From a virus (Duplodnaviria; Caudoviricetes), in the IMG/VR virus record IMGVR_UViG_3300048598_000287, positions 213,198 through 277,197 of that record: a stretch of DNA of 64,000 nt; one strand, written 5' to 3'. Positions within the stretch are counted from its first letter, which is position 1. Each line of letters begins with the position of its first letter. Below are positions 1 to 24,749 of the stretch, piece by piece. The position numbers and the translations under genes were made by a program. The notes below the pieces were generated by a model, which saw only the letters and a program-made list of their open reading frames with translations, ran no database searches and was not told the origin of the DNA.

Positions 1-889
1 GCCGTGAATCATTGTTCAAAGCCCTGCATGTTCCCGTAGCATTTGCTTCCGATGTGAACGGTATGTTAAGAAAATTTTTACAATAGTATATAGATGGGAT
101 TTTGAGAAGATACCTGGATGTTGCTGGTTTACATAATACAGTGTCATATGAATCAGAAGAACAATATTTATGCGGGTTTTCATCAGGTAAAGAAGACGTC
201 AACTTATATGTCCATTGTTCCATGGTATCAAAGAAAAGAACATATTTAGGAAACTTTCTGTTCATCTTCTGAAAAATATTCTTTATTTTCTTATTTACTG
301 CTGCACGAGAAGAACATTCTTTAACATCTATTGCTGTATTATTAATACGGCAGATCAGGACGCCAAAATTAGGTTCCGAATGTTTAGAAATATCTGCTAA
401 AAGCTGCATCCCGCAATCCGATAGCATTGCCAATTTAATAATGTTCTCTTCAAGCCAATAATGAGTCATATATGACGCATTGATGTTCATTGACCTAGCG
501 CGAGAAAGTATTTCCTGTATACGGGCAATCATTAAACTGTCAATGCCTAGCCAAGGTGCATATTTATCGATGATGAGCCTTTTAGCTGAATCAGATAATA
601 CATATTCATAGATATCATTATTGTCACTGGAATCAGTATGACAATTTATTCTTAGCGGATCGTTATATTTCACATCAATATATGTCCGGTATTTATCGCA
701 GGCAAAAAATAGTCGCATGTTATCATCAGACATGTTGCAGTCTACATAATCAGAAACGCACAAGATTTTATTTGCATTTAAAGCAGGAGCATCAGAGGCA
801 TTTATGAAATCAGACCAGTGTAAATAAAATGTTCCATTTGATATACTATCTTTGCTATAACGCATTTGGCATCCTGTATTTGCTTCCAT
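1..889 (-). CDS. Hypothetical protein, runs off the left edge (>=296 aa, MEANTGCQMRYSKDSIS...)
   Basis: Manual translation: ATG at 889, open to position 2 with no stop, so it is missing from the ORF track. Its first ~29 codons lie in repeat copy 1. Confidence 0.8.
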   Translation of the reverse strand, partial: MEANTGCQMRYSKDSISNGTFYLHWSDFINASDAPALNANKILCVSDYVDCNMSDDNMRLFFACDKYRTYIDVKYNDPLRINCHTDSSDNNDIYEYVLSDSAKRLIIDKYAPWLGIDSLMIARIQEILSRARSMNINASYMTHYWLEENIIKLAMLSDCGMQLLADISKHSEPNFGVLICRINNTAIDVKECSSRAAVNKKIKNIFQKMNRKFPKYVLFFDTMEQWTYKLTSSLPDENPHKYCSSDSYDTVLCKPATSRYLLKIPSIYYCKNFLNIPFTSEANATGTCRALNNDSR

Positions 890-989
890 ATATTCTTTTG
901 CTAAAGTTCATCAGTAATTCTTTAATATAGTAAAAAATAACCGTTATGTCAATGCTATTTTAAAAAATCGCCTGATGTTCCGAATTCCA
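802..989. repeat. Direct repeat copy 1 (188 bp)
   Basis: TTATGAAATCAGACCAG...GTTCCGAATTCCA aligns with 3826-4010 with 5 substitutions and 3 nt of indels by manual comparison. Confidence 0.97.
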
Positions 990-3738
990 CTTTGGGGAGG
1001 GCATCGACGATGTCCATGGTTTTGATGCTTAGGTCGATGACAGAAAGGAGGGTGTCGAGGATGTAGCGGGGGTTTTGGTGTTCTTTTGCCCAGTCGTTGC
1101 AGTCGTTTGTGATTAGGCTCGCTTTGTCCTGGGTGACGGCATAGCGCTCGACTATCCAATCGATGGCGGATTTACCGTTTACGATGTAATCGTAGGCACG
1201 GGCGGGAATGTTTTCAATGGTGATCTGAGGGTTGTAGAGAATCTTGAATTTGTCGGACTTGCCTGCGAAGCGCATTTTGTCAGGAATGCGGAAATACTTG
1301 TAGTCTTCAGGGGTGCCGCTTGCGCTTTTGTCCCCTGCGATGTTTATGCCGAGTTTTTTGGCGAGCGCCCTGGCCTCGGCGGTGGATTTCTCATAATTCA
1401 GATGGAGACCGGCTAGGGCGCGGCCCGCTTTTTCAAAGGCGGCGAAATCTTCGTAGCCGGAGACGAAAATGATTTTCGGGAGCGATTTCTTGAGGTCGTC
1501 TTTGAAAGTTTCCCGGTAGTCCTTGCTGTGGAGGAACCCGTAGACGTAATAGAAGATGTTTTCTTTGGTGATTTTTTTGTTTGCACCGTAGATGCGTCTG
1601 GCTTCAGCTAGAGCCCAGTTGGAGACCCCGTCTTTCCTTTCAAGTTCCTGTGCAAAGAGGTCGCCTTTATTTTGTTCCGAATAGTAATGGAACGGGAAAC
1701 ATTGACTTTTCCCTATGAGTTCAAGGTCAGGAAGAGTATTTGAAATGATACAGGAAAAATCTTTGGTTACGCCAATTCCAGAAACGCAGATGACGAGGTT
1801 TTGCGTATCGGGGGTGGGGAAAAGACGAGGGCTAAGGCCAAAGCACTCTATTAAATCATTTTGAGCATATAAATTTTGTTTTTGAAAGGGTCGATAAGAT
1901 CCCAATCTTACAAAATCATCGGAATATTCAATATTTTTTCCATTGACTAGTGATTTTTTTAGTCCGCGTGTCCAACTTATTTTTGTTGGATCACTGCTGA
2001 GAATGTCTTCCAGTTTCTTTCCTGATTTTACTGCTTTTTTATATAATTCCCGCTGAGAATTGTAGAAATCTACACATGATTTCATATTCTTTTGCAGGTT
2101 TTTCTCCGAGAATGAATAAACCCAAGAATCTCTATTTGTAGCCACACCAATAGCATTTGTTTCAAACAAACTTTTTGTTCCCGTGTCAAATTTCTTTTCA
2201 GGAGCAAGTGGTGTTAGCGTATCAAATACGCCGCCACGTTGGTTGATCCAGTCGGCTTTTTCGTTGGGTGTAATTTGTTCCCACTTTATATGTTGAATGG
2301 ATACAGCTTCTTTCAATATTTCCAGTTTACGCTCCCGGGTCAGGTAGTCGCCGATGTCGTGGTAATGGATTTCGCAGGGCCGCCCTTTCTTCGCGGGATT
2401 GTAAACGAGGAAGGTGATGGTCACGGGAGTACGGCTGCCGCTCCCGAATATTTTGCCGCCTTCTTTCCTTGAAAGTTCTCCGCTCGTCCGCTGGTTCCCT
2501 CGTAGGTTGAGTACCCAGATGCCCGTGAACTCTTCGACCAGACATTTCCGCATACCGTCCTGCCCGTTGCCGTCCAACCAGCCGCCATTGGAGATAAAGG
2601 CGACGATGCCGCCTTCCTTGTTCTTTTGAATGCGGTCGCTTGCAAAACGGAATGCCTTGATATAGGAATCGTAAAGGGATTTTTTCAGGTTTGCGGTGGA
2701 TTTCGCGGCATAGCTATCTTCAACCCTGGCGTCCAATACAGGGTAGCTTAAATTCTGGGCGTTGTCGTTTGCGCTTTTTTGCCCTACGGAATAGGGCGGG
2801 TTCCCGATTATCACGCGGACAGGAATTCTACGCTGCCGTTCCACTTCCCTGTAGTTGTCATCAAAGTAGCCATCCAGCTTCGCCGCCTCCTGGCTGCTTC
2901 CGTCATCGCTTTCCGCCGTCTGGAAGGTATCGGTCAGGCAGATTCCGTTAAAGGGCAGGTATGCGGCCGACTTGTTCAAATCGTGGTAGACGCTTTCGAT
3001 GTTCACGTCGGCAATGTAATAGGCGAGCAGCACGATTTCATTCGCGTGGAGTTCCTTTTTGTATTTGCGCTCCATGTCCTCCTTTTGAATGAGTCCGCTC
3101 TGAAGGAGCCTCGTGATGAACGTGCCCGTTCCCGTGAACGGATCCATGATGTGAACGTCGCGGTTCGTCAGATCGGTTTTGAATTCATCGTGCAGAAGAA
3201 TATTCACGGAATGGATGATAAAGTCAACGCACTCGATCGGCGTATAGACTATGCCCAGTTTTTCAACCGTGGTCGGGAACGCGGATTTGAAGAACTTTTC
3301 GTAGAGTTCCTTGATGACTTTCTGCTTGCCTTCGAGGTTATCGAGCTGTCCGACGTTTGTGCGCACGGAGGTATAGAATTTTTCCAGTTCCCCGGCCTCT
3401 TCGTTCACGCCCTGCTTCTGGAGTTCCCTGATGACGCGGGCCATGGTACGCGATATGGAATTGTTGTCGACGAACTTGTAGTCGGCGAACAGGGCGTCGA
3501 ATACAGGCTGCGTGATCATGTGCTGGGCGAGCATCTGCACCGCGTCGTTTTCGGTCACGGAATTGTTGATGTTCTTCCGGAGCGCCGCCAGATATTTTTC
3601 AAAGAGCTGCTTTGTCCGGCTGTTCTGCTCCGCTCGCAGGTAGTCAATCCGGGCGATGTATTTCTTCGCGATGACGCCGACATCCTGCTTTCTTGCATTC
3701 GCAAAATTGATCGTATGATTTGTTGAACGGGCCATCAT
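955..3738 (-). CDS. N6-adenine DNA methyltransferase derived from a Type ISP (LlaGI/LlaBIII-like) R-M enzyme; coupler-MTase-TRD only, no nuclease or helicase
   Basis: GIVYTP, motif I DPFTGTGTF, motif IV IIGNPPYS, LNLRGNQRTSGELSRKEGGKIFG, YRPFQKQ, YIVNGKSAIDWIVERY...NDCNDW...PRYI. 927 aa with no Walker A/DEAH. GC content visibly above the flanks. Confidence 0.92.
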   Translation of the reverse strand: MMARSTNHTINFANARKQDVGVIAKKYIARIDYLRAEQNSRTKQLFEKYLAALRKNINNSVTENDAVQMLAQHMITQPVFDALFADYKFVDNNSISRTMARVIRELQKQGVNEEAGELEKFYTSVRTNVGQLDNLEGKQKVIKELYEKFFKSAFPTTVEKLGIVYTPIECVDFIIHSVNILLHDEFKTDLTNRDVHIMDPFTGTGTFITRLLQSGLIQKEDMERKYKKELHANEIVLLAYYIADVNIESVYHDLNKSAAYLPFNGICLTDTFQTAESDDGSSQEAAKLDGYFDDNYREVERQRRIPVRVIIGNPPYSVGQKSANDNAQNLSYPVLDARVEDSYAAKSTANLKKSLYDSYIKAFRFASDRIQKNKEGGIVAFISNGGWLDGNGQDGMRKCLVEEFTGIWVLNLRGNQRTSGELSRKEGGKIFGSGSRTPVTITFLVYNPAKKGRPCEIHYHDIGDYLTRERKLEILKEAVSIQHIKWEQITPNEKADWINQRGGVFDTLTPLAPEKKFDTGTKSLFETNAIGVATNRDSWVYSFSEKNLQKNMKSCVDFYNSQRELYKKAVKSGKKLEDILSSDPTKISWTRGLKKSLVNGKNIEYSDDFVRLGSYRPFQKQNLYAQNDLIECFGLSPRLFPTPDTQNLVICVSGIGVTKDFSCIISNTLPDLELIGKSQCFPFHYYSEQNKGDLFAQELERKDGVSNWALAEARRIYGANKKITKENIFYYVYGFLHSKDYRETFKDDLKKSLPKIIFVSGYEDFAAFEKAGRALAGLHLNYEKSTAEARALAKKLGINIAGDKSASGTPEDYKYFRIPDKMRFAGKSDKFKILYNPQITIENIPARAYDYIVNGKSAIDWIVERYAVTQDKASLITNDCNDWAKEHQNPRYILDTLLSVIDLSIKTMDIVDALPKVEFGTSGDFLK

Positions 3739-3743
3739 ATAAA

Positions 3744-3752
3744 TAGTTTATA
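3744..3752 (-). promoter_or_regulatory. Late-promoter-like motif TATAAACTA upstream of the methyltransferase
   Basis: Exact copy of the motif found before structural genes, 5 nt upstream of the ATG. Confidence 0.75.
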
Positions 3753-3789
3753 TCCTTCATATAAATTATATCTTTATTAACTTACACTC

Positions 3790-3818
3790 TTGCATATATT
3801 CCATCAATTTACTATATT
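3790..3818 (+). promoter_or_regulatory. Putative sigma70-type promoter TTGCAT-N17-TATATT facing repeat copy 2
   Basis: Similar to TTGCAA-N16-TATATT (14312) and TTGCCA-N16-TATATT (19587), which precede replication genes. Confidence 0.4.
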
Positions 3819-3825
3819 TTCTGTA

Positions 3826-3912
3826 TTATGAAATCAGACCAGCGTAAATAAAATGTTCCATTTGATATGCTATCTTTGCTATAACGCATTTGCATCCTGT
3901 ATTTGCTTCCAT
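3826..3912 (-). pseudogene. Truncated, frameshifted duplicate of the 5' end of the ORF starting at 889
   Basis: CGCATTTGCATC here versus CGCATTTGGCATC in copy 1 (1-nt deletion). Homology stops at 3826. Confidence 0.75.
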
Positions 3913-4010
3913 ATATTCTTTTGCTAAAGCTCATCAGTAATTCTTTAATATAGAAAAATAACCGTTATGCCAATGCTATTTTAAAAAATCACCTGATGTT
4001 CCGAATTCCA
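3826..4010. repeat. Direct repeat copy 2 (185 bp)
   Basis: Matches 802-989. Contains the 3' end of the polymerase-like gene, the intergenic spacer and a frameshifted start of the 889 ORF. Confidence 0.97.
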
Positions 4011-5535
4011 TCCGTTCCTCTTCGGTAAATGTAGGAATTTCAATATTTGAAAGGGCGTCGTCAAAAATTTTCTTAGCTGCTGAAGCATATCGTTCATCTA
4101 CGATAATGCTGTCATGAACGGTGCAGACAGGACAATGTAAGTTATTTTTAATATTTTTGTAAACTATTCCAAATACAAGATGGCTTTCTGTACGTTGAAG
4201 TTCATGCGCCAAAGCTGTATGATTTTTATATTTAATTAGCTGTATTACCTTATAAAGAGAAGGAAACTCTGCTTTCCATATATATTGAATGGCTTTAACG
4301 AGCCGATGCTTCTTGTGAGAGAAGAACGGTCCGCAGAAAAGGCATGTGAGAAATTCTTTCTTGACTTCAGAACGGTCGCATGAAAGACACATAGAATCAT
4401 TAAGAAAAGAAAGAAAATGTTCATAAAGAGAACCAGAAACAAGAAGTGAACGATAGGAAGAGAGGTCAGAGTGGAAAGTTTTAATGAAAGAAGAAGTAAA
4501 TAAAGTGGAATAATGTGAGTAATCAAATTTCATATCTATATATGAATCCACAATATGTTCTCGCCCGTCATAATGTGATATGAAGTTATCGAACACCTTG
4601 TATAGAAAAGCTCCCTGAGAACTTTTAATGTCAATTCCCACAGTTGGACGTCCATCACATAATATACAGTTTTTTCTGACTTCTTTTTTTATCTGCGTTA
4701 TGTTTGTATGGACTCGTCCATATGCGTCTCTTTTGCAATATATAGAATATGGATCATTGACATATCCGTCAAATGCGTCAACCTTGTGCAATTCTTCAGA
4801 CATTCGTTCGGCTGATATCTTATTTTTTGATACCATATCTGATAATATTCGATGGCTTTTATCTTTATCTATTGAAAAATGCTGTAAATCTTCATATAGT
4901 TCCCTGATTTGTGGAAGACTCATCTGTTCTTTCTTTACTTCTTCTGCATGAAGCGAAAGCCTTCTATAAAGTCTTGGATTTGAAATTTTAATTACCCGGA
5001 CTCCGCCCTGCCTTTTTGGAATGTCGCCTGATGTCTCCTGATTTTTTGTAATCAGATATCTATGGACATATAACAGGAAATCTGAAGTGAACCAATAGTG
5101 CTTACATTTTCCTTTCACTTCTTTCGTACCTTTTATATATGAGTCGCTTCTACCGATGATGCCCATTTGTATAAGGATTTTTACATATTTTAGATAGTTA
5201 GATCCTATTATTCGATTGTATATGCGTGAATATATAGGAACCGCCCATCGTGTAAGATCTATAGGCCATCCATGTTTCATTGCTATGTTGAATGCTATCT
5301 GATATCGTCGATATATCGTATTTATGATGTACAGAAGGTATTCATAGTTTTCCGCTATGCTTCCAGATAGCTCATTATTGGTTTGCATATATTCAAATAT
5401 ACGGTTAGGCACAAGCATCTTGTCGAAAGTGTATAAGCTGTCCGACTCTGCGAAGTGGTCTAGTACGTTTATTGAAGAAAATGCGTTTTTTGTCATCGCC
5501 ATACAATATACATTTTTCTGAATCATTTTTGGCAA
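3976..5535 (-). CDS. Small family-A-like polymerase (TV-Pol-like) with possible N-terminal winged helix and no exonuclease domain
   Basis: GRVHT, motif A GIDIKSSQ, motif B RSEVKKEFLTCLF, LQRTES, motif C TVHDSIIV. True start may be the ATG at 5526. Confidence 0.75.
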   Translation of the reverse strand: MPKMIQKNVYCMAMTKNAFSSINVLDHFAESDSLYTFDKMLVPNRIFEYMQTNNELSGSIAENYEYLLYIINTIYRRYQIAFNIAMKHGWPIDLTRWAVPIYSRIYNRIIGSNYLKYVKILIQMGIIGRSDSYIKGTKEVKGKCKHYWFTSDFLLYVHRYLITKNQETSGDIPKRQGGVRVIKISNPRLYRRLSLHAEEVKKEQMSLPQIRELYEDLQHFSIDKDKSHRILSDMVSKNKISAERMSEELHKVDAFDGYVNDPYSIYCKRDAYGRVHTNITQIKKEVRKNCILCDGRPTVGIDIKSSQGAFLYKVFDNFISHYDGREHIVDSYIDMKFDYSHYSTLFTSSFIKTFHSDLSSYRSLLVSGSLYEHFLSFLNDSMCLSCDRSEVKKEFLTCLFCGPFFSHKKHRLVKAIQYIWKAEFPSLYKVIQLIKYKNHTALAHELQRTESHLVFGIVYKNIKNNLHCPVCTVHDSIIVDERYASAAKKIFDDALSNIEIPTFTEEERMEFGTSGDFLK

Positions 5536-5565
5536 AATTCATGAAAAATGGCAGTTATGCTCATT

Positions 5566-5581
5566 AAAAACGTATTTTAAT
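5566..5581 (+). promoter_or_regulatory. Early/middle-type motif AAAAACGTATTTTAAT upstream of uvsW
   Basis: Related copies at 11733, 12967, 15866 and 18432, all directly before non-structural genes. Confidence 0.65.
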
Positions 5582-5630
5582 GGTGCAGAGCACCTTGGTA
5601 AGGAAATGCTAATGGTTTCGGAGATAACAG

Positions 5631-7352
5631 ATGAACGCATATTTTGATTTTTTAGAAGGAAATTCGTCGGTTGTGACCGTTTCCGGAGGAAGTGACACGG
5701 CAATGCGTCGCGTATATAGTTTTATGAACGGGGCCATAAAGTATCATGACAAGCAGGCCGAATATAGCGATGAATATAAATATGGTTTCGGAGATAATTT
5801 TGTTAATTTTTATGATAGAAAAACCAATTCGCTGCCAATAGGACTTATTCCGAGATTATGTTCTCTTATAAAGGGACAGTTTCCTGATATTACGATAGGG
5901 CTTTCTCCTCGCATCCGTTCGATGTTCACCCCTCCGGTTCACCTTAGCAACGAAGACATACTTAAGTATGCAGATACGCTTAATATACATGACCGTAAGA
6001 GTGGACACGCGATGTCTCTTTATGATCATCAGCTTAAGCTAATATATGAGGCGATGAATCATAGAAGAGGATCATTGAAGGCGTGCACATCGGCAGGTAA
6101 ATCATTGGCCATGTATGTCATGACAAGATATTTGAATGAAGTCGAGCATAGGAAAGTACTGATCGTAGTTCCTAATCAGGGTCTGGTACTTCAGCTTTAC
6201 AATAATTTTTATGACGATTATGGCTGGGATGATGCTGGAAATACATGCACGCTTATATACAGTGATTCCAAGGATAAGGTCACCGCTGCTAAAAAGAAGA
6301 AGCTGGCTGAGCTTAACATGGGAGAACAGGCGATGCTTAAGCCGGTGACTATTTCCACATGGCAGAGTCTTCAGCATAAAGAGCCGGAGTTTTTCAAATC
6401 ATTTCAGGCAGTCATAGTGGACGAGGCGCACGGTACCAGGGGAATTAAACTACGGACGATACTTGATTTATGTATTAACGCAGATAATTTCAAGATAGGC
6501 GTGTCCGGAACGCTTCCTGATGATGGTCTTGACGCAGGATATATAGAATCATCATTAGGTAAAAAATACGACATAGTGAATCTTAATGAATTGGTCGAGA
6601 AAGGACTGCTTACTCCTGTTAAGGTGGTCGCTCTTTTTGTGCCTTATCCTGTGGATTGCCGCCCTATGATATGTTATTCCAAGTTCGATGAAGAATACTC
6701 CATCGTTACTGGAAACCGTAGCCGGCTTGACATAATGGACATGCTTATCGGAAGCGGAAAAATAACGACATCGCAGAACACCGTTATACTTTTCAGAAAC
6801 ATAACTCCTCTTGAGACGATGCTGTCTTATTTATCTGAAACACATCCGGAATTCAAATATCATGTGATAAAGGGAGAAATAAAGGCGTCTGAAAGAGAGT
6901 CCATAAGGAACATGATGGAAGACAGTTCTGGAAATATACTCATCGGTACATATGGATGCCTACAGGCCGGGATGAACATAAAGAATCTGGATAATCTGGT
7001 TTTCGGAGATCCTGGAAAGTCAATGTATATGATTTGCCAATCGATAGGAAGAATTGTGCGGAAGAATTTTGGAAAAGAGGTGGCTACTTGCTATGATATA
7101 GTTGATGATGCATCCTATCTAGTTCATGGACGTAAAAGAGGAAATTACATGAGGCAAAACTGCATGGTAAGGCATTTTGGAGAGCGGATGAAATATTACG
7201 AGAACGACCATATTCCGGTTACTACGGTTGATCTTTCCGGGATTGTAGATGCCGATATAAAAATAGATGACATAAAGAAAAAGCGGAAGGAAAAGGCCGA
7301 TAGGAAAGGCAAAAAACCCAATAAAATGAAAGGATACCGTAGGCAGTTTTAA
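5631..7352 (+). CDS. uvsW: UvsW-like SF2 DNA helicase
   Basis: LYDHQ, CTSAGKS, VDEAH, SGT, GMNIKNL, QSIGRIVR, YDIVDD; T4-like context. Confidence 0.9.
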   Translation: MNAYFDFLEGNSSVVTVSGGSDTAMRRVYSFMNGAIKYHDKQAEYSDEYKYGFGDNFVNFYDRKTNSLPIGLIPRLCSLIKGQFPDITIGLSPRIRSMFTPPVHLSNEDILKYADTLNIHDRKSGHAMSLYDHQLKLIYEAMNHRRGSLKACTSAGKSLAMYVMTRYLNEVEHRKVLIVVPNQGLVLQLYNNFYDDYGWDDAGNTCTLIYSDSKDKVTAAKKKKLAELNMGEQAMLKPVTISTWQSLQHKEPEFFKSFQAVIVDEAHGTRGIKLRTILDLCINADNFKIGVSGTLPDDGLDAGYIESSLGKKYDIVNLNELVEKGLLTPVKVVALFVPYPVDCRPMICYSKFDEEYSIVTGNRSRLDIMDMLIGSGKITTSQNTVILFRNITPLETMLSYLSETHPEFKYHVIKGEIKASERESIRNMMEDSSGNILIGTYGCLQAGMNIKNLDNLVFGDPGKSMYMICQSIGRIVRKNFGKEVATCYDIVDDASYLVHGRKRGNYMRQNCMVRHFGERMKYYENDHIPVTTVDLSGIVDADIKIDDIKKKRKEKADRKGKKPNKMKGYRRQF

Positions 7353-10240
7353 AATCCGAACACTTCCCGCCTCGCTTTAGTTTTGCGAAGTTTTTGCTTA
7401 TCTTCCGACATCCTGGACTTTAGTTCTTCATCTTCCTTCTTGCGGGCCTTTGCCTCGATGGATTTTATCGACGGAGAACTGTTTCCATATAGGTTGATTC
7501 GCAAAGATGCTTCGGTTATCGATATTTTTTCCATTGCCGATTGTATGTTATCGGAATCCATGGAATTTGACAGCTTTGACGATATTATAGGAATAAGTTC
7601 CGATGATATGGAAGAATCAAGAAGATCTATCCTTGACTTGACCATTGTTAGCAAGGATTTCAGATGAGTAGCGTAGTTGAACGTTATTCCTGAATTGATT
7701 GATATGTATTTTTTAATGTCGCCAATTTCAGACGCAGATATTATGCCATCCTCATCTGTTCCATTAGAATGCTTGATGAGATATATGGACCTAGCAAGAA
7801 TATCATACATCATGGCGTTGAATAAATATTCTTTTTCGCATGGGGATCCTCCATATGTATATCTTTTCCCGGTAAGGGTCATTTGTCCACTGGATATTAG
7901 GATCAGTGTCTGAGCGGTAGGATATGTGTATGACTGTTCGAATGCTGGCGGGATGTCATCTGAATTCCGTATGGCATCATTATAAAGTCTTATTATGGAT
8001 TCTACCAAGGTTCCTATTGAAAGCACATGCTGCTTATGTTCGTCCTTTGCGTCTTCCGTTTCTGGAAGAGTCCTTGCAGAGAAAATCTTTTCAACTATTC
8101 GTATTGTATCATTATCTTTTCCCAGTTCGGCATAGATGGATTGCTTTGTTTCTGCATTCATCTTTCCTGCCGCTTTTAATGTCTCCTGTATTTCATCGCA
8201 TTTGTTATCGATGACCGTGTTATATTTTAACGATATGGATGAATAAAAGCCCTGCTGTGATACATTCCATTGATTCAGATGGCTATTTGAGCTGAGCGTT
8301 TGCTGTATGACGGACTTATAATTGGCGAGATCTTTCTTGGATATCTGGGTCGAGTTTATCGGAGATATGTTTTCTCCGATTCCCGAATTTATGACATCGA
8401 TGACTTCATTGAGAGTGCCGATTTTTTTAATACCATCCATGAACGGCGCCGCTGCGGCTTGCAAGGTTTTCAATAGAATGTCTTTTCCTTCCGCCAATGA
8501 AGGCTTATCTGGATACTGGATGTCTTCTTCTGAAAATGACCCTAGTTCACGCTGAGACATATGTCTCCAGGTATCATTCGTATTCATCGCATATCCACAA
8601 TTACGCATTGCGGTGGATATCGATTCATTATATCCTGACGGTATGGGCTTTCGTTTAATTGAATCAATTTTTTCCGGCGCATCGGACGATATGGATGCCT
8701 TTCTTTCATCTTCGTCTAGCATTTCATTGTTTTCAAGAAATTCTATTGTTACACTTAAATCGCTGTCTCCTGAATATGATGCTATTGGGATATATTCTCC
8801 ATCTTCTGCAATTCTGATGATTTTCTCAACTACGCCGTCAAATCCGGACAGGTCATATGATATTCCGTTTCTTAATATTTTCGGATTGAACGATGATCCG
8901 CGACGTAGATTTGCAACATCAAGTTTAGCCACTCTTGCCATGGCATATAGGGTTTTAGCAAAATTTGTCATTTCGGTTTCATTTCCGAATTCCACTGTTT
9001 TGTTATTTTGTAACTCATTTGAATAACCGTCAATGATCTGTTGTATTTCCACTTTTTTCTGGCATATGGGGGCATTACATTTTCCTGCAGGTTCTCCGGA
9101 AAGGATATTTTCCAGAGCGGATACATTCTCCGGCCCGGCAGACACGATTTGCCCTATTAGGGACATTATGACCGGAACAGCCATATGTTCGGAATCTTCC
9201 TTTCCTATGGAATCGTCTATATGACCATTTGTCACTGTTTCAAGCATCTTTCCTATGGCCATCTGCGGATTATTCGTTGGAGTAAGAGTTTCCGGCTGTG
9301 CAGTTATGTCAGTGTTGTCTGAATTACTAGATTCTGGACCGTAGGTCAATGAATTAAATACGGAAGATGACTCGCCATCATCATTTGTATGGGCCATCCC
9401 GGATTCGGTATTATTGAATTCGTTCTTGCTGACGAACATCACGAAATAATTCTTGAACGCATCATACTGATCCTTTTCAAGGAGTATTTTTTTTCTCTGC
9501 CCGTCCATTATTTTTGGCGATGGCAATCCAAGAGGGGACATTATATTGTACATTACCTGCATGAACAGTTCTAGATTAGATTTTCCGCTGAATTGCTTAT
9601 CTTCTTTTGCCAGGACAAGCTCTATGACTGGTATGGTAGTTCCATTTTCTCCACTACCGTTAGGGTTCATCTTGAATGTTCCGTCAAATCGGCTGTCTGC
9701 AAAGTTTTTAAGCGTATCCACTATGCTTCTTGCAGTTTTAATCGCGGTGCGGGTCTTGTCAATAGAAGCATATTTATATTTTTCGTCGAATGCAGCGAAT
9801 TCAGATGATGCGAACACTGATTTTGTATATATAGAAACGAAATATCCAGCTAGTTCACCGCCTGTAGAAAGCGCATCTTGGACGAATGCTCTCGGTTGGA
9901 ATGCTTTTATTGCATTGGCTATTTTTTTACCTTCATATAGACGGATCATTGATTTTGGCGTTTCTGGAAGAAATTTGAATGATGAATCCGATTTGCTAGG
10001 ATCCGTTAGGGATGGAATTATAGCATTCAACGAAAGCCGTTTCTTTATCTCTCCTATGCTGGCAGATGATGTTTTCTTATCGGTGTTTCCAACCATGGCG
10101 TTGATTATTTCGTCGGTGAGAAGATCGACGGTTTCCGGGGTATAGAGCTCGTTAAGATATCCATTATGCAGTTCCTTTCCCGGAATCGTGGTTCTTATAT
10201 AATATATCAATGCATATAGTTTTTGAAGAGTATTGAACAT
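7349..10240 (-). CDS. Large hypothetical protein (963 aa), probably late/virion
   Basis: Long ORF with TATAAACTA at 10267-10275 upstream; no motif recognised. Confidence 0.7.
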   Translation of the reverse strand: MFNTLQKLYALIYYIRTTIPGKELHNGYLNELYTPETVDLLTDEIINAMVGNTDKKTSSASIGEIKKRLSLNAIIPSLTDPSKSDSSFKFLPETPKSMIRLYEGKKIANAIKAFQPRAFVQDALSTGGELAGYFVSIYTKSVFASSEFAAFDEKYKYASIDKTRTAIKTARSIVDTLKNFADSRFDGTFKMNPNGSGENGTTIPVIELVLAKEDKQFSGKSNLELFMQVMYNIMSPLGLPSPKIMDGQRKKILLEKDQYDAFKNYFVMFVSKNEFNNTESGMAHTNDDGESSSVFNSLTYGPESSNSDNTDITAQPETLTPTNNPQMAIGKMLETVTNGHIDDSIGKEDSEHMAVPVIMSLIGQIVSAGPENVSALENILSGEPAGKCNAPICQKKVEIQQIIDGYSNELQNNKTVEFGNETEMTNFAKTLYAMARVAKLDVANLRRGSSFNPKILRNGISYDLSGFDGVVEKIIRIAEDGEYIPIASYSGDSDLSVTIEFLENNEMLDEDERKASISSDAPEKIDSIKRKPIPSGYNESISTAMRNCGYAMNTNDTWRHMSQRELGSFSEEDIQYPDKPSLAEGKDILLKTLQAAAAPFMDGIKKIGTLNEVIDVINSGIGENISPINSTQISKKDLANYKSVIQQTLSSNSHLNQWNVSQQGFYSSISLKYNTVIDNKCDEIQETLKAAGKMNAETKQSIYAELGKDNDTIRIVEKIFSARTLPETEDAKDEHKQHVLSIGTLVESIIRLYNDAIRNSDDIPPAFEQSYTYPTAQTLILISSGQMTLTGKRYTYGGSPCEKEYLFNAMMYDILARSIYLIKHSNGTDEDGIISASEIGDIKKYISINSGITFNYATHLKSLLTMVKSRIDLLDSSISSELIPIISSKLSNSMDSDNIQSAMEKISITEASLRINLYGNSSPSIKSIEAKARKKEDEELKSRMSEDKQKLRKTKARREVFGF

Positions 10241-10345: not shown

Positions 10346-11731
10346 ATGTCATATGAAGTAGAAACATATAAATACGATACACGCCGGCTGATGGTTGTCG
10401 ATTGGTCGAGCGTTGCATACCAGAACATTTTTTCCATAGGATCCGGAAGAAATGCGGGAAAATATGGGGTGCTTACTCAGGAAGATGAACTTCGCCTATG
10501 GCGAAACAAGATGGTAGTTTCTATGTATGAATTCATCCAGGCGTTTAATCCACTGAATATAATAATAGCGGTAGATGGAGAATCTTGGAGAAAATCGTAT
10601 GTAAAGCAATATTATAATGACAATGCCATTGTATATTACGATGATCATGCGATGTATACTGAAGCTGATAATTATGGCTATAAGATAATGAAATGCGGTG
10701 AAACATATATAGTTGAACGTGTTGAAACCAAGAAGTTTTCAATATTCAGGAATCTTAAGCATTGCTTTCTTGGGCAGCTTCCTGCTGACAAAAATGCGCT
10801 TATATGGAACCTGTATGAAAAGGAAAGCAGACCGATAATTCATTCATATAAAGGAAAACGTAAGTTTTCTATGTGGGACGTGGTTACTCCTAAGGATGTA
10901 TGGAGGAAACATAAGGATGAATTTGCATTCACTATCAGTAAATTTTTCCGCTCTATCCCGATCAGGGTATCTGGTGCCGAAGGCGATGACGTGATATATA
11001 ATTCTGTCCAGGCGCTTAAGAATGAATATCAAAGCATTGTCATAGTCACCCGGGACAGTGATATGCTTCAGATAGATGTTCCTAATCTTAAAATATATGA
11101 CCATCTGAATGATAATTTCATGACATGCACATCGCCCAGCGAATATCTTGCCACTAAGATTTTACGTGGAGATTCCAGTGATAATATTCAGGGAATGTCA
11201 ATAGATGATCCAAAGAATCCTGGATTTCCGAAATCAAAACAGATCGGGGAAAAGGGGGCAAAGACGCTTTTGGAATCCGGTGAGAATGTGTATGAAAAGG
11301 CTAAGCGAGAAGGATGGCTTAAACAATACACGCGTAATGCTGACCTTATAGATCTTAGTCATACCCCAGAATCTATTAAAGAAAAAATTGCAGAATTATG
11401 CATATTTTCTCCGAACCCCCCAGATGACATTAATGGCATGTCCAGTCTTGGGATAACGCAGAAAGTAATTGATTTATGCATAAATCTTAGGAGCAGGGGA
11501 TTTTATTCTTTTCTTCCCGCCGACTGCGCATCGTCAGTAAATATATCATTTGAAAATGAACGTAAACAGCAGGAAGCACATATTGAAAACATAAAGGACG
11601 CAATGACATCCCCAATATCGGCGCCTTCTGTTGATGATATAGTGTCGCATATGTCGCCTGAAAATGATATGATAAGGGATTTCAAGAAGATAGATGTTTT
11701 CCCTGATCCGCTTGGCGAAGTGCCGTTTTGA
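10346..11731 (+). CDS. rnh: T4 RNase H-like 5'-3' exonuclease/flap endonuclease
   Basis: VVDWSS, AVDG, YKGKR, AEGDDVI, TRDSDMLQ, LRGDSSDNIQG, IGEKGA. Confidence 0.9.
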   Translation: MSYEVETYKYDTRRLMVVDWSSVAYQNIFSIGSGRNAGKYGVLTQEDELRLWRNKMVVSMYEFIQAFNPLNIIIAVDGESWRKSYVKQYYNDNAIVYYDDHAMYTEADNYGYKIMKCGETYIVERVETKKFSIFRNLKHCFLGQLPADKNALIWNLYEKESRPIIHSYKGKRKFSMWDVVTPKDVWRKHKDEFAFTISKFFRSIPIRVSGAEGDDVIYNSVQALKNEYQSIVIVTRDSDMLQIDVPNLKIYDHLNDNFMTCTSPSEYLATKILRGDSSDNIQGMSIDDPKNPGFPKSKQIGEKGAKTLLESGENVYEKAKREGWLKQYTRNADLIDLSHTPESIKEKIAELCIFSPNPPDDINGMSSLGITQKVIDLCINLRSRGFYSFLPADCASSVNISFENERKQQEAHIENIKDAMTSPISAPSVDDIVSHMSPENDMIRDFKKIDVFPDPLGEVPF

Positions 11732-12966: not shown

Positions 12967-12982
12967 AAAAACGTATTTTAAT
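12967..12982 (+). promoter_or_regulatory. Early/middle-type motif AAAAACGTATTTTAAT upstream of uvsX
   Basis: 16-mer identical to 5566-5581. Confidence 0.65.
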
Positions 12983-24696: not shown

Positions 24697-24749
24697 TAGT
24701 TTATAATGCAGTGAAAGGCAGTTTTCGGATATCGCCGGAGTATAAACTA
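24697..24749. promoter_or_regulatory. Divergent pair of TATAAACTA motifs (24697-24705 minus, 24741-24749 plus)
   Basis: Two exact copies pointing at dnaJ and at the 24775 operon. Confidence 0.8.

Follow-up and report, generated by a model that had tools for sequence, protein, structure and literature searches.

The methyltransferase gene described here raises the question of how half of a bacterial restriction enzyme came to stand as a gene of its own on a phage genome, and what it is kept for. The gene (955..3738, minus strand, as are all other parts of the locus and its two neighbouring genes) lies in the last 64 kb (213198–277197; hereafter the window, 64,000 nucleotides in all) of a 277-kb IMG/VR virus record (G000) that is 66% complete by CheckV. 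It encodes a 927-amino-acid protein and occupies most of an insert, referred to here as the cassette, between two direct repeats. We consider it probable that the gene is a chimeric orphan DNA methyltransferase made of three parts, namely a leader and start taken from a TnpB element, a coupler-to-specificity body taken from a Type ISP enzyme and a tail taken from a neighbouring open reading frame (ORF), ORF519, and that it most likely serves the phage as self-protection against restriction.

The source virus is a T4-like jumbo phage with an overall GC content of 41%. This assignment follows from its Gp23-type major capsid protein, from a T4-type gene set (UvsX-like recombinase, exonuclease, helicase, baseplate wedge protein and tail-sheath stabiliser) and from the Gp23 and T4-type portal proteins encoded near the relatives of ORF519, which are 54–63% identical to it. 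Close relatives of the phage all come from human-gut or sewage metagenomes, and the taxa of the ESM Atlas matches and of the best bacterial homologues suggest that the hosts are probably Bacteroidota. Megablast of window positions 1–8000 against GenBank phages returned no match, and neither did three scans of viral contigs, with the ORF519 protein, the repeat core and the leader pattern.

The modification half of a Type ISP enzyme

Pfam matches divide the protein into a coupler (PF22240, ISP_coupler; E = 5.5e-40, model positions 7–125 of 126), a gamma-class N6-adenine methyltransferase (PF02384, N6_Mtase, and PF07669, Eco57I) and a Type ISP specificity domain (PF18135, Type_ISP_C; E = 2.9e-105, model positions 2–341 of 342). 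In a structure comparison the protein aligns with residues 556–1404 of LlaGI and 720–1576 of LlaBIII, in both cases from the coupler to the end, and the alignment with LlaGI shows motif I (FxGxG; here DPFTGTGTF) and motif IV (NPPY; here GNPPYS) to be intact. Type ISP enzymes recognize an asymmetric site of which one strand is methylated, and they require unmodified head-to-head sites for cutting (PMC3553950). The phage ORF has no Pfam match to an Mrr-family nuclease and no superfamily 2 (SF2) helicase-like motor, and because these two defining domains are missing its product is a derivative of a Type ISP enzyme rather than such an enzyme itself.

The closest relative outside the phage, P0002, is a fused protein of 1,535 amino acids from the contig of a bacterial metagenome-assembled genome (MAG), with Mrr nuclease, ResIII/helicase, coupler, methyltransferase and Type_ISP_C regions. 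Phage residues 18–920, the Type ISP-derived body that runs from the coupler to the native C terminus (979..3680), correspond to P0002 residues 630–1534 at 80% identity, and the alignment reaches the second-to-last residue of P0002. Another fused enzyme, P0089, reaches 84% identity across the portion that it covers; the remaining relatives are at most 59% identical. When the 629 N-terminal residues of P0002 were compared with the 277-kb record by tblastn, there was no nuclease match and only a generic match, at 21% identity, to the phage helicase, which is also present in relatives without the cassette; the restriction half is therefore absent from the available part of the genome, in which no cognate restriction partner was found. 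The initial annotation had read the gene as the modification half of a captured bacterial Type ISP gene that has lost its restriction half. This reading holds, because the two nearest relatives (80–84% identity) are fused, full-length enzymes and not natural stand-alone methyltransferases of equal length, and because the record contains no nuclease–helicase half. The helicase gene of the phage (5631–7352) was considered as the missing Type ISP motor and rejected, since it is kept in cassette-less relatives and matches phage helicase families.

The gene is GC-rich in AT-rich surroundings, as had been remarked from its composition. Calculated per 300 nt, GC is 0.50–0.54 within the gene and 0.29–0.38 in the flanks, with 48% for the gene as a whole, and the earlier spot counts of 37/60 at 3481 and 36/60 at 1321 are exact on recount. 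One segment of the specificity domain (amino acids 521–660; 1759..2178) is a low-GC, swapped-in mosaic piece, with a GC content at third codon positions (GC3) of 0.29 compared with 0.61–0.74 elsewhere in the gene, and with 54% identity to P0002 (80–89% elsewhere) and 76% identity to a fragment, P0010. The homology search for a full-length donor, which the initial annotation had proposed, succeeded to the extent that it found a fused relative at 80% identity, and did not find the direct donor. P0002 is rejected in that role because its DNA is AT-rich, unlike the phage gene, and a scan of genome contigs for a closer bacterial donor gave 56% identity at best, in Bacteroidales and Prevotella MAGs.

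The cut that separated the two halves may also have been made before the phage was involved. In that case the phage would have acquired a methylase gene that was already separate, in a Type ISP-like system split over two genes, and nothing but the extreme ends of this gene would have been replaced. Such an arrangement is found in P0038, a 932-amino-acid protein with coupler, methyltransferase and specificity domain whose gene is directly preceded by a 719-amino-acid Mrr-plus-helicase gene on a bacterial conjugative element, and several relatives of 860–940 amino acids begin 30–60 residues before the same conserved AKKFI motif. We nevertheless regard this origin as rather unlikely, given that the two closest relatives are fused, that the short forms are no more than 58% identical and that the phage joint lies within the coupler homology (Pfam model position 7), with the native start replaced by tnpB codons. 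Two further contigs carry a coupler–methyltransferase–specificity protein of 930 amino acids that is 57% identical to the phage methylase (L017 78–2870; L018 53–2845), with DprA-like, HAD, phosphoribosyltransferase-like, T5orf172 and Exo_endo_phos genes behind it; as the two contigs end immediately 5′ of its gene, this protein may be either stand-alone or part of a split system.

Three joints inside a duplicated junction

The start of the gene is of TnpB origin. The 87-nt leader (3739..3825), which is 83–87% identical to its counterparts, and the first 19 codons plus 1 nt (3681..3738) together form a 151-nt stretch with two paralogues in the genome, 87% identical at G000 204877–205026 (copy B) and 83% identical at G000 97313–97468 (copy C), and both are 5′ ends of tnpB genes. 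Copy C is intact and encodes 432 amino acids with a Cas12f1-like TNB domain (C-terminal zinc-ribbon; PF07282, E = 3.9e-14) and matches to PHROG transposase families 12300 and 506, and of copy B there remains a 713-nt fragment, interrupted by a tandem duplication of 36 nt. In a three-way alignment the homology extends from the element tip, which falls exactly at the end of the upstream repeat (3825/3826), to AAGCAGGATG at codon 19/20, and 14 of the first 19 methylase residues are identical to copy C. These boundaries assign the leader, the TATAAACTA motif within it, the start codon and residues 1–19 to TnpB. That the N terminus is foreign to the coupler had been recognized at the outset, and the first 17–19 residues indeed have no Type ISP homology; the TnpB origin had not been recognized. 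The cassette retains only the 5′ 145 nt of the element, without the RuvC or zinc-ribbon part, the right end or the guide-RNA region. An Rfam scan around two tnpB loci gave no match at the gathering threshold. The genes that flank the three leader copies are not paralogous, and there is thus no shared target gene.

Several features of the TnpB elements were recorded in passing. The intact TnpB-only element measures 1.44 kb (G000 96034–97477; L014 4035–5478) and has a GC content of about 50–56% in a genome of 41%. The same element is inserted at G000 210870 in L019, L020 and L021 and is missing there in the source genome, a strain-specific insertion from which we conclude that the element is mobile now or was so recently. 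In both insertions TCT directly adjoins the right end, the sequence of which is ...GCATTT(C/A)G(A/G)CTAAC. The duplication in copy B is a perfect tandem (L015 5197–5268; G000 205196–205267), with a stop after 85 codons.

The gene has three joints. At the first (3825/3826), ORF600, the gene downstream of the cassette, reads GTCTGATTTCATAATACAG around codons ~32–37 and the element tip reads GTCTAATAACATGATACAG, with 15 of 19 bases matching. The second (3680/3681) lies inside the left arm of a perfect 10–11-bp tnpB hairpin (−19 to −21 kcal/mol), at a position where many Type ISP homologues read W-A-K-D-V/I-G; a GGATG microhomology is plausible here. At the third (979–989), eight of nine bases agree between GATTTCGGA, the donor-type ending, and GAATTCGGA of ORF519 (the P0002 gene ends ...GATTTCGGAGAGTAA), and the last seven codons and the stop of the methylase come from the ORF519 tail, a source that the initial annotation had likewise missed.

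Around these joints stand the direct repeats, at 802–989 and 3826–4010, whose presence on both sides of the methyltransferase gene was confirmed by repeat search and pairwise alignment. They are 188 and 185 nt long, about 96% identical (five substitutions and two indels totalling 3 nt) and spaced 3021–3024 nt apart. Read on the coding (minus) strand, each copy contains the end of a gene (11 codons and the stop; …EFGTSGDFLK*), a spacer of 40–45 nt and the first ~36 codons of ORF600. The tail in the upstream copy (3826..4010) belongs to ORF519, and the head of ORF600 that follows it is a remnant, a dead stub of 40 amino acids (3812–3934). In the downstream copy (802..989) the tail closes the methylase (last codons and stop, 955–989), and after the intergenic spacer the ORF600 start is live. 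The ORF519-tail/spacer/ORF600-head junction is thus duplicated over 188 bp around the insert, which leaves both neighbouring genes whole.

ORF519 (3976..5535) is a conserved phage gene next to the replicative helicase. Its relatives in other phages keep the sequence …IPTFTE.E.ME… up to the tail, from which it follows that the methylase has borrowed a tail originally belonging to ORF519. The description of a neighbouring gene as polymerase-like finds no support, as neither ORF519 nor ORF600 (2..889; whole at G000 212284–214086, 600 amino acids) obtained a function from Pfam, PHROGs or the ESM Atlas. ORF600 belongs to no known family and has a single distant relative at 36% identity. It is split by a frameshift in L020 and L021, shortened at the N terminus in L041, reduced to 73 amino acids in L044 and missing from the more distant relatives L023 and L026, and is a dispensable accessory gene.

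Short homologies at all joints, the hairpin at one of them and a staggered re-entry 188 bp behind the exit point suggest that the chimera may have been made in replicating concatemers, by illegitimate recombination or microhomology-mediated template switching. The leader, with its late-type motif, and 19 codons derive from the left end of an IS200/IS605-type TnpB element; the coupler, the N6-adenine methyltransferase and the specificity domain derive from a bacterial single-chain Type ISP enzyme, probably severed just after the helicase; and upstream ORF519 supplied the last seven codons and the stop. Transposition does not fit as the origin of the insert, which has no right end and no TnpA; IS200/IS605 elements are not known to make long duplications.

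Spread, selection and predicted function

The cassette occurs in contigs from 12 other samples, and eight of these contigs span both repeats with the same structure at ~99% identity. A chimera introduced during assembly could be suspected from the GC jumps and from the repeat at each edge, and we give it practically no credence: contigs from other samples and other assemblers, eight in number, cross both repeats at 99% identity, which excludes the repeat as an assembly artefact.

A relative with an empty site, which the initial annotation had suggested looking for, also exists. In L038, an 80-kb contig from sewage, ORF519 is followed by a single 188-nt unit and then by ORF600, which is the exact empty allele. 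L038 and the filled strains encode the same ORF519 protein. Over 3.5 kb of its left flank L038 matches three of these strains exactly, and in both flanks it nests within filled-strain diversity. The two repeat copies differ in their variability. The upstream copy of the window recurs unaltered in all but one of 12 related contigs, the exception being L045 with one change, and the downstream copy is polymorphic across strains, with two haplotypes, one of them common to the empty-site allele. L038 has the downstream-copy variants at all five sites that separate the upstream and downstream copies, and its haplotype is shared by the downstream copies of L039 and L022. Because these variants are present throughout, a repeat-mediated deletion could have given rise to L038 only if the crossover fell within the first 19 nt of the repeat. 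A surviving pre-insertion allele fits L038 at least as well as an excision product does. Excision or amplification of the unit through the repeats, which the initial annotation had proposed, is plausible as a possibility, and no amplified form of the cassette was seen in the assemblies, which would collapse one anyway.

Among nine strains, the cassette outside one tract has 6 variable sites in ~2.5 kb, compared with ~6.5 per 500 nt in the left flank and ~5 per 250 nt in the right flank, and is thus 5–8 times less polymorphic. This low diversity, together with the near-invariant upstream repeat copy, gives the cassette the appearance of DNA that has only recently spread in a population in which recombination occurs. 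None of the nine full copies has a disrupted ORF; 25 polymorphic codons have synonymous changes only and 13 have amino-acid changes, which gives a rough ratio of nonsynonymous to synonymous polymorphism (pN/pS) of 0.14. The methylase is under purifying selection.

These observations bear on another reading, in which a TnpB/IS605-type transposon carries the cassette as selfish cargo that is kept by mobility or homing without benefit to the phage. Its 5′ end is the left end of an element that moves among strains (the G000 210870 insertion in L019, L020 and L021), and both its presence/absence polymorphism and its low diversity are as such cargo might show. The cassette, however, lacks a right end, TnpA and an intact tnpB, the whole genome has a single right end, a 188-bp target duplication is not an IS200/IS605 product and the pN/pS of ~0.14 points to selection at the protein level. 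We consider this explanation very improbable.

The tract set aside above is a gene-conversion tract in the specificity domain (1354..1642), where L039 and L042 have a version that is ~13.5% diverged, with 39 linked differences over 290 nt (nt 2097–2385 of the coding sequence). LlaGI and LlaBIII, too, differ mainly in the specificity domain (PMC3553950). Together, the mosaic segment and the conversion tract show that exchange with other Type ISP genes is continuing in the specificity domain, and repeated replacement of pieces of the recognition domain is what would be expected if the phage tracks the specificity of the enzymes that it meets.

The protein would most likely methylate one strand of an asymmetric 6–7-bp Type ISP target on replicating phage DNA, and progeny would be immune to hosts that have a Type ISP enzyme of the same specificity. 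It could conceivably act in another way, in epigenetic control of phage genes or packaging, or as a non-methylating decoy that binds the sites of a host Type ISP enzyme. The coupler domain has been retained although a plain methylase would not obviously need one, and the methylase activity and target are predictions. Such roles nonetheless seem improbable to us: catalytic motifs I and IV are intact, swaps of the specificity domain are the expected outcome of an arms race over recognition sequences, and the cassette-less strain is otherwise near-identical, from which it follows that the cassette has no core function.

When the gene might be expressed is suggested by TATAAACTA, which resembles the T4 late promoter and which was confirmed at 3744..3752, 5 nt upstream of the methylase ATG. 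The motif occurs 13 times in the window, where 0.72 occurrences are expected, and there are 39 exact copies in the genome, where ~6.6 are expected. Nearly all copies precede an ORF, most commonly 23–27 nt from the ATG. The annotated genes behind it encode a baseplate wedge protein, a tail-sheath stabiliser and two endolysin/amidase-like proteins, and the genes for the helicase, exonuclease, UvsX and ORF519 are without it; three of the latter show a CGTATTTTAAT-like element. We did not see it before the Gp23 gene. The T4 late promoter consensus is TATAAATA at −13 to −6 (PMC1524935), and the genes preceded by TATAAACTA are likely to form a late class, which makes late expression of the methylase plausible.

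Two side observations concern these promoter-like motifs. TATAAACTA has two upstream flavours, ...GTTTTCTTCCGCAAATCTTA-TATAAACTA and ...CCGGCAT-TATAAACTA (in the window, for example, at 24697/24741 and 40215/40250), which may be sub-classes of late or middle promoter, and it often occurs in divergent back-to-back pairs 30–45 nt apart. A second motif, (A)AAACGTATTTTAAT, with two exact copies compared with 0.08 expected, is found at window positions 5571–5581, 12972–12982 and near 11730, before the divergent helicase/ORF519 pair, ORF397 and UvsX, and is a candidate early or middle promoter of replication genes.

Five points weigh against the reading of the gene as a late-expressed, protective chimera built by the phage. 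No direct donor was identified; the nearest relative has 80% identity as a protein, and its DNA is AT-rich compared with a phage GC3 of 0.6–0.7. Since natural two-gene split Type ISP systems exist in bacteria, the donor methylase may already have been separate. The chimera may have been imported ready-made instead of forming in the phage, the three leader copies being only 83–87% alike. The TATAAACTA motif of the methylase is 5 nt from the ATG and not at the usual 23–27 nt, so that the transcript would be nearly leaderless; the distance is likewise 5 nt in tnpB, and the methylase might alternatively be expressed by read-through from ORF519 or from the duplicated region upstream of ORF600. Finally, methylation by the protein and expression of the gene are sequence-based predictions, as is the protective benefit.

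Other methylases behind the leader, and known systems

The cassette is not the only place where a methyltransferase gene follows this leader. The truncated tnpB copy B lies between a major facilitator superfamily (MFS) transporter gene and the gene for a 560-amino-acid Eco57I/TaqI_C-type methyltransferase, co-oriented with the latter and 247 nt upstream of it, and an IS256-family transposase gene comes after. At this locus in L022 and L044 the same leader is kept only to the ATG and is followed by 136 nt of unrelated DNA, a gene for a different, unrelated methyltransferase of 537 amino acids and an ISL3 transposase gene; the two methyltransferases are 24% identical in the catalytic core. The methylase-plus-IS256 segment appears, by gene order alone, to be inverted in L038 relative to the source genome. 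The MFS transporter, truncated tnpB, 560-amino-acid methyltransferase and IS256 transposase genes make up a hypervariable accessory island (G000 203600–209400; L015 3600–9001), and the coding region upstream of the MFS gene contains two tandem 81-nt units that are 79% identical (L015 2758–2919; G000 202757–202918).

Three different methylases are therefore found, co-oriented, behind truncated copies of one TnpB leader, in a sample of three from one lineage. The intact tnpB copy has no methylase neighbour, and a scan of metagenome contigs for the leader pattern found only the intact tnpB locus of the same phage. Such an arrangement hints at a hot spot for capture, or at selection that favours the capture of promoters. 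We propose, tentatively and as a possibility that we hold to be doubtful, that the TnpB 5′ end, with a late-type promoter and a hairpin inside the gene, is a recurrent joint for installing and expressing foreign methyltransferase genes. If this were true, whether through breaks made by TnpB or through hairpin-induced template switches, an RNA-guided transposon nuclease would feed the anti-restriction repertoire of a phage. The association of truncated TnpB 5′ ends with methylases suggests a testable mechanism of gene capture for phages.

How does this gene compare with known systems? Its coupler, gamma-class methyltransferase and specificity domain align end to end with those of LlaGI and LlaBIII (PDB 5FFJ and 4XQK; E = 4.5e-207 and 1.2e-187), from which it differs in having neither the Mrr nuclease nor the SF2 helicase, in the 19 TnpB codons at its N terminus and the seven phage-protein residues at its C terminus, and in being borne by a phage. 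The split system of P0038 has, like the phage, a separate gene that starts near the same domain boundary; there the nuclease–helicase gene is directly upstream, whereas the phage has no such partner, and the identity is 56%. Type IIL/IIG enzymes (DrdV, PDB 7LO5; the MmeI family) share a homologous methyltransferase and specificity core (E = 5.8e-134), but have an N-terminal nuclease and, unlike the phage protein, no coupler or helicase ancestry. Among 50,697 GenBank phage records, two have a Type ISP relative, both of them unverified 11-kb contigs labelled as Listeria phages; the one examined encodes a full enzyme of 1,559 amino acids, and the other gives an identical match. The 5′ end is related to TnpB of IS200/IS605-type elements, in that the leader and first 19 methylase codons match the intact 432-amino-acid TnpB, whose element has strain-specific insertions.

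Orphan methylases are a textbook counter-defence of phages against restriction, as in the Dam enzymes of T4 and P1 and the multispecific methylases of Bacillus phages. The present gene resembles these phage orphan methyltransferases in having no cognate nuclease on a lytic phage genome and in its presumed role in the self-protection of progeny, and differs from them in its source, an enzyme of the single-chain translocating Type ISP kind. Such enzymes, known mainly from work on Lactococcus, would seem to be important enough in gut and sewage communities that a jumbo phage keeps a matching methylase and, as the swaps of the specificity domain suggest, updates it. How a host defence gene became a counter-defence gene of a phage is legible here at base resolution, in the cut point, the source of the promoter and start, the preservation of the neighbouring genes and the empty site. 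What is new relative to known systems is the single-chain translocating source, the readable build of three joints with a TnpB 5′ end and the surviving empty site.

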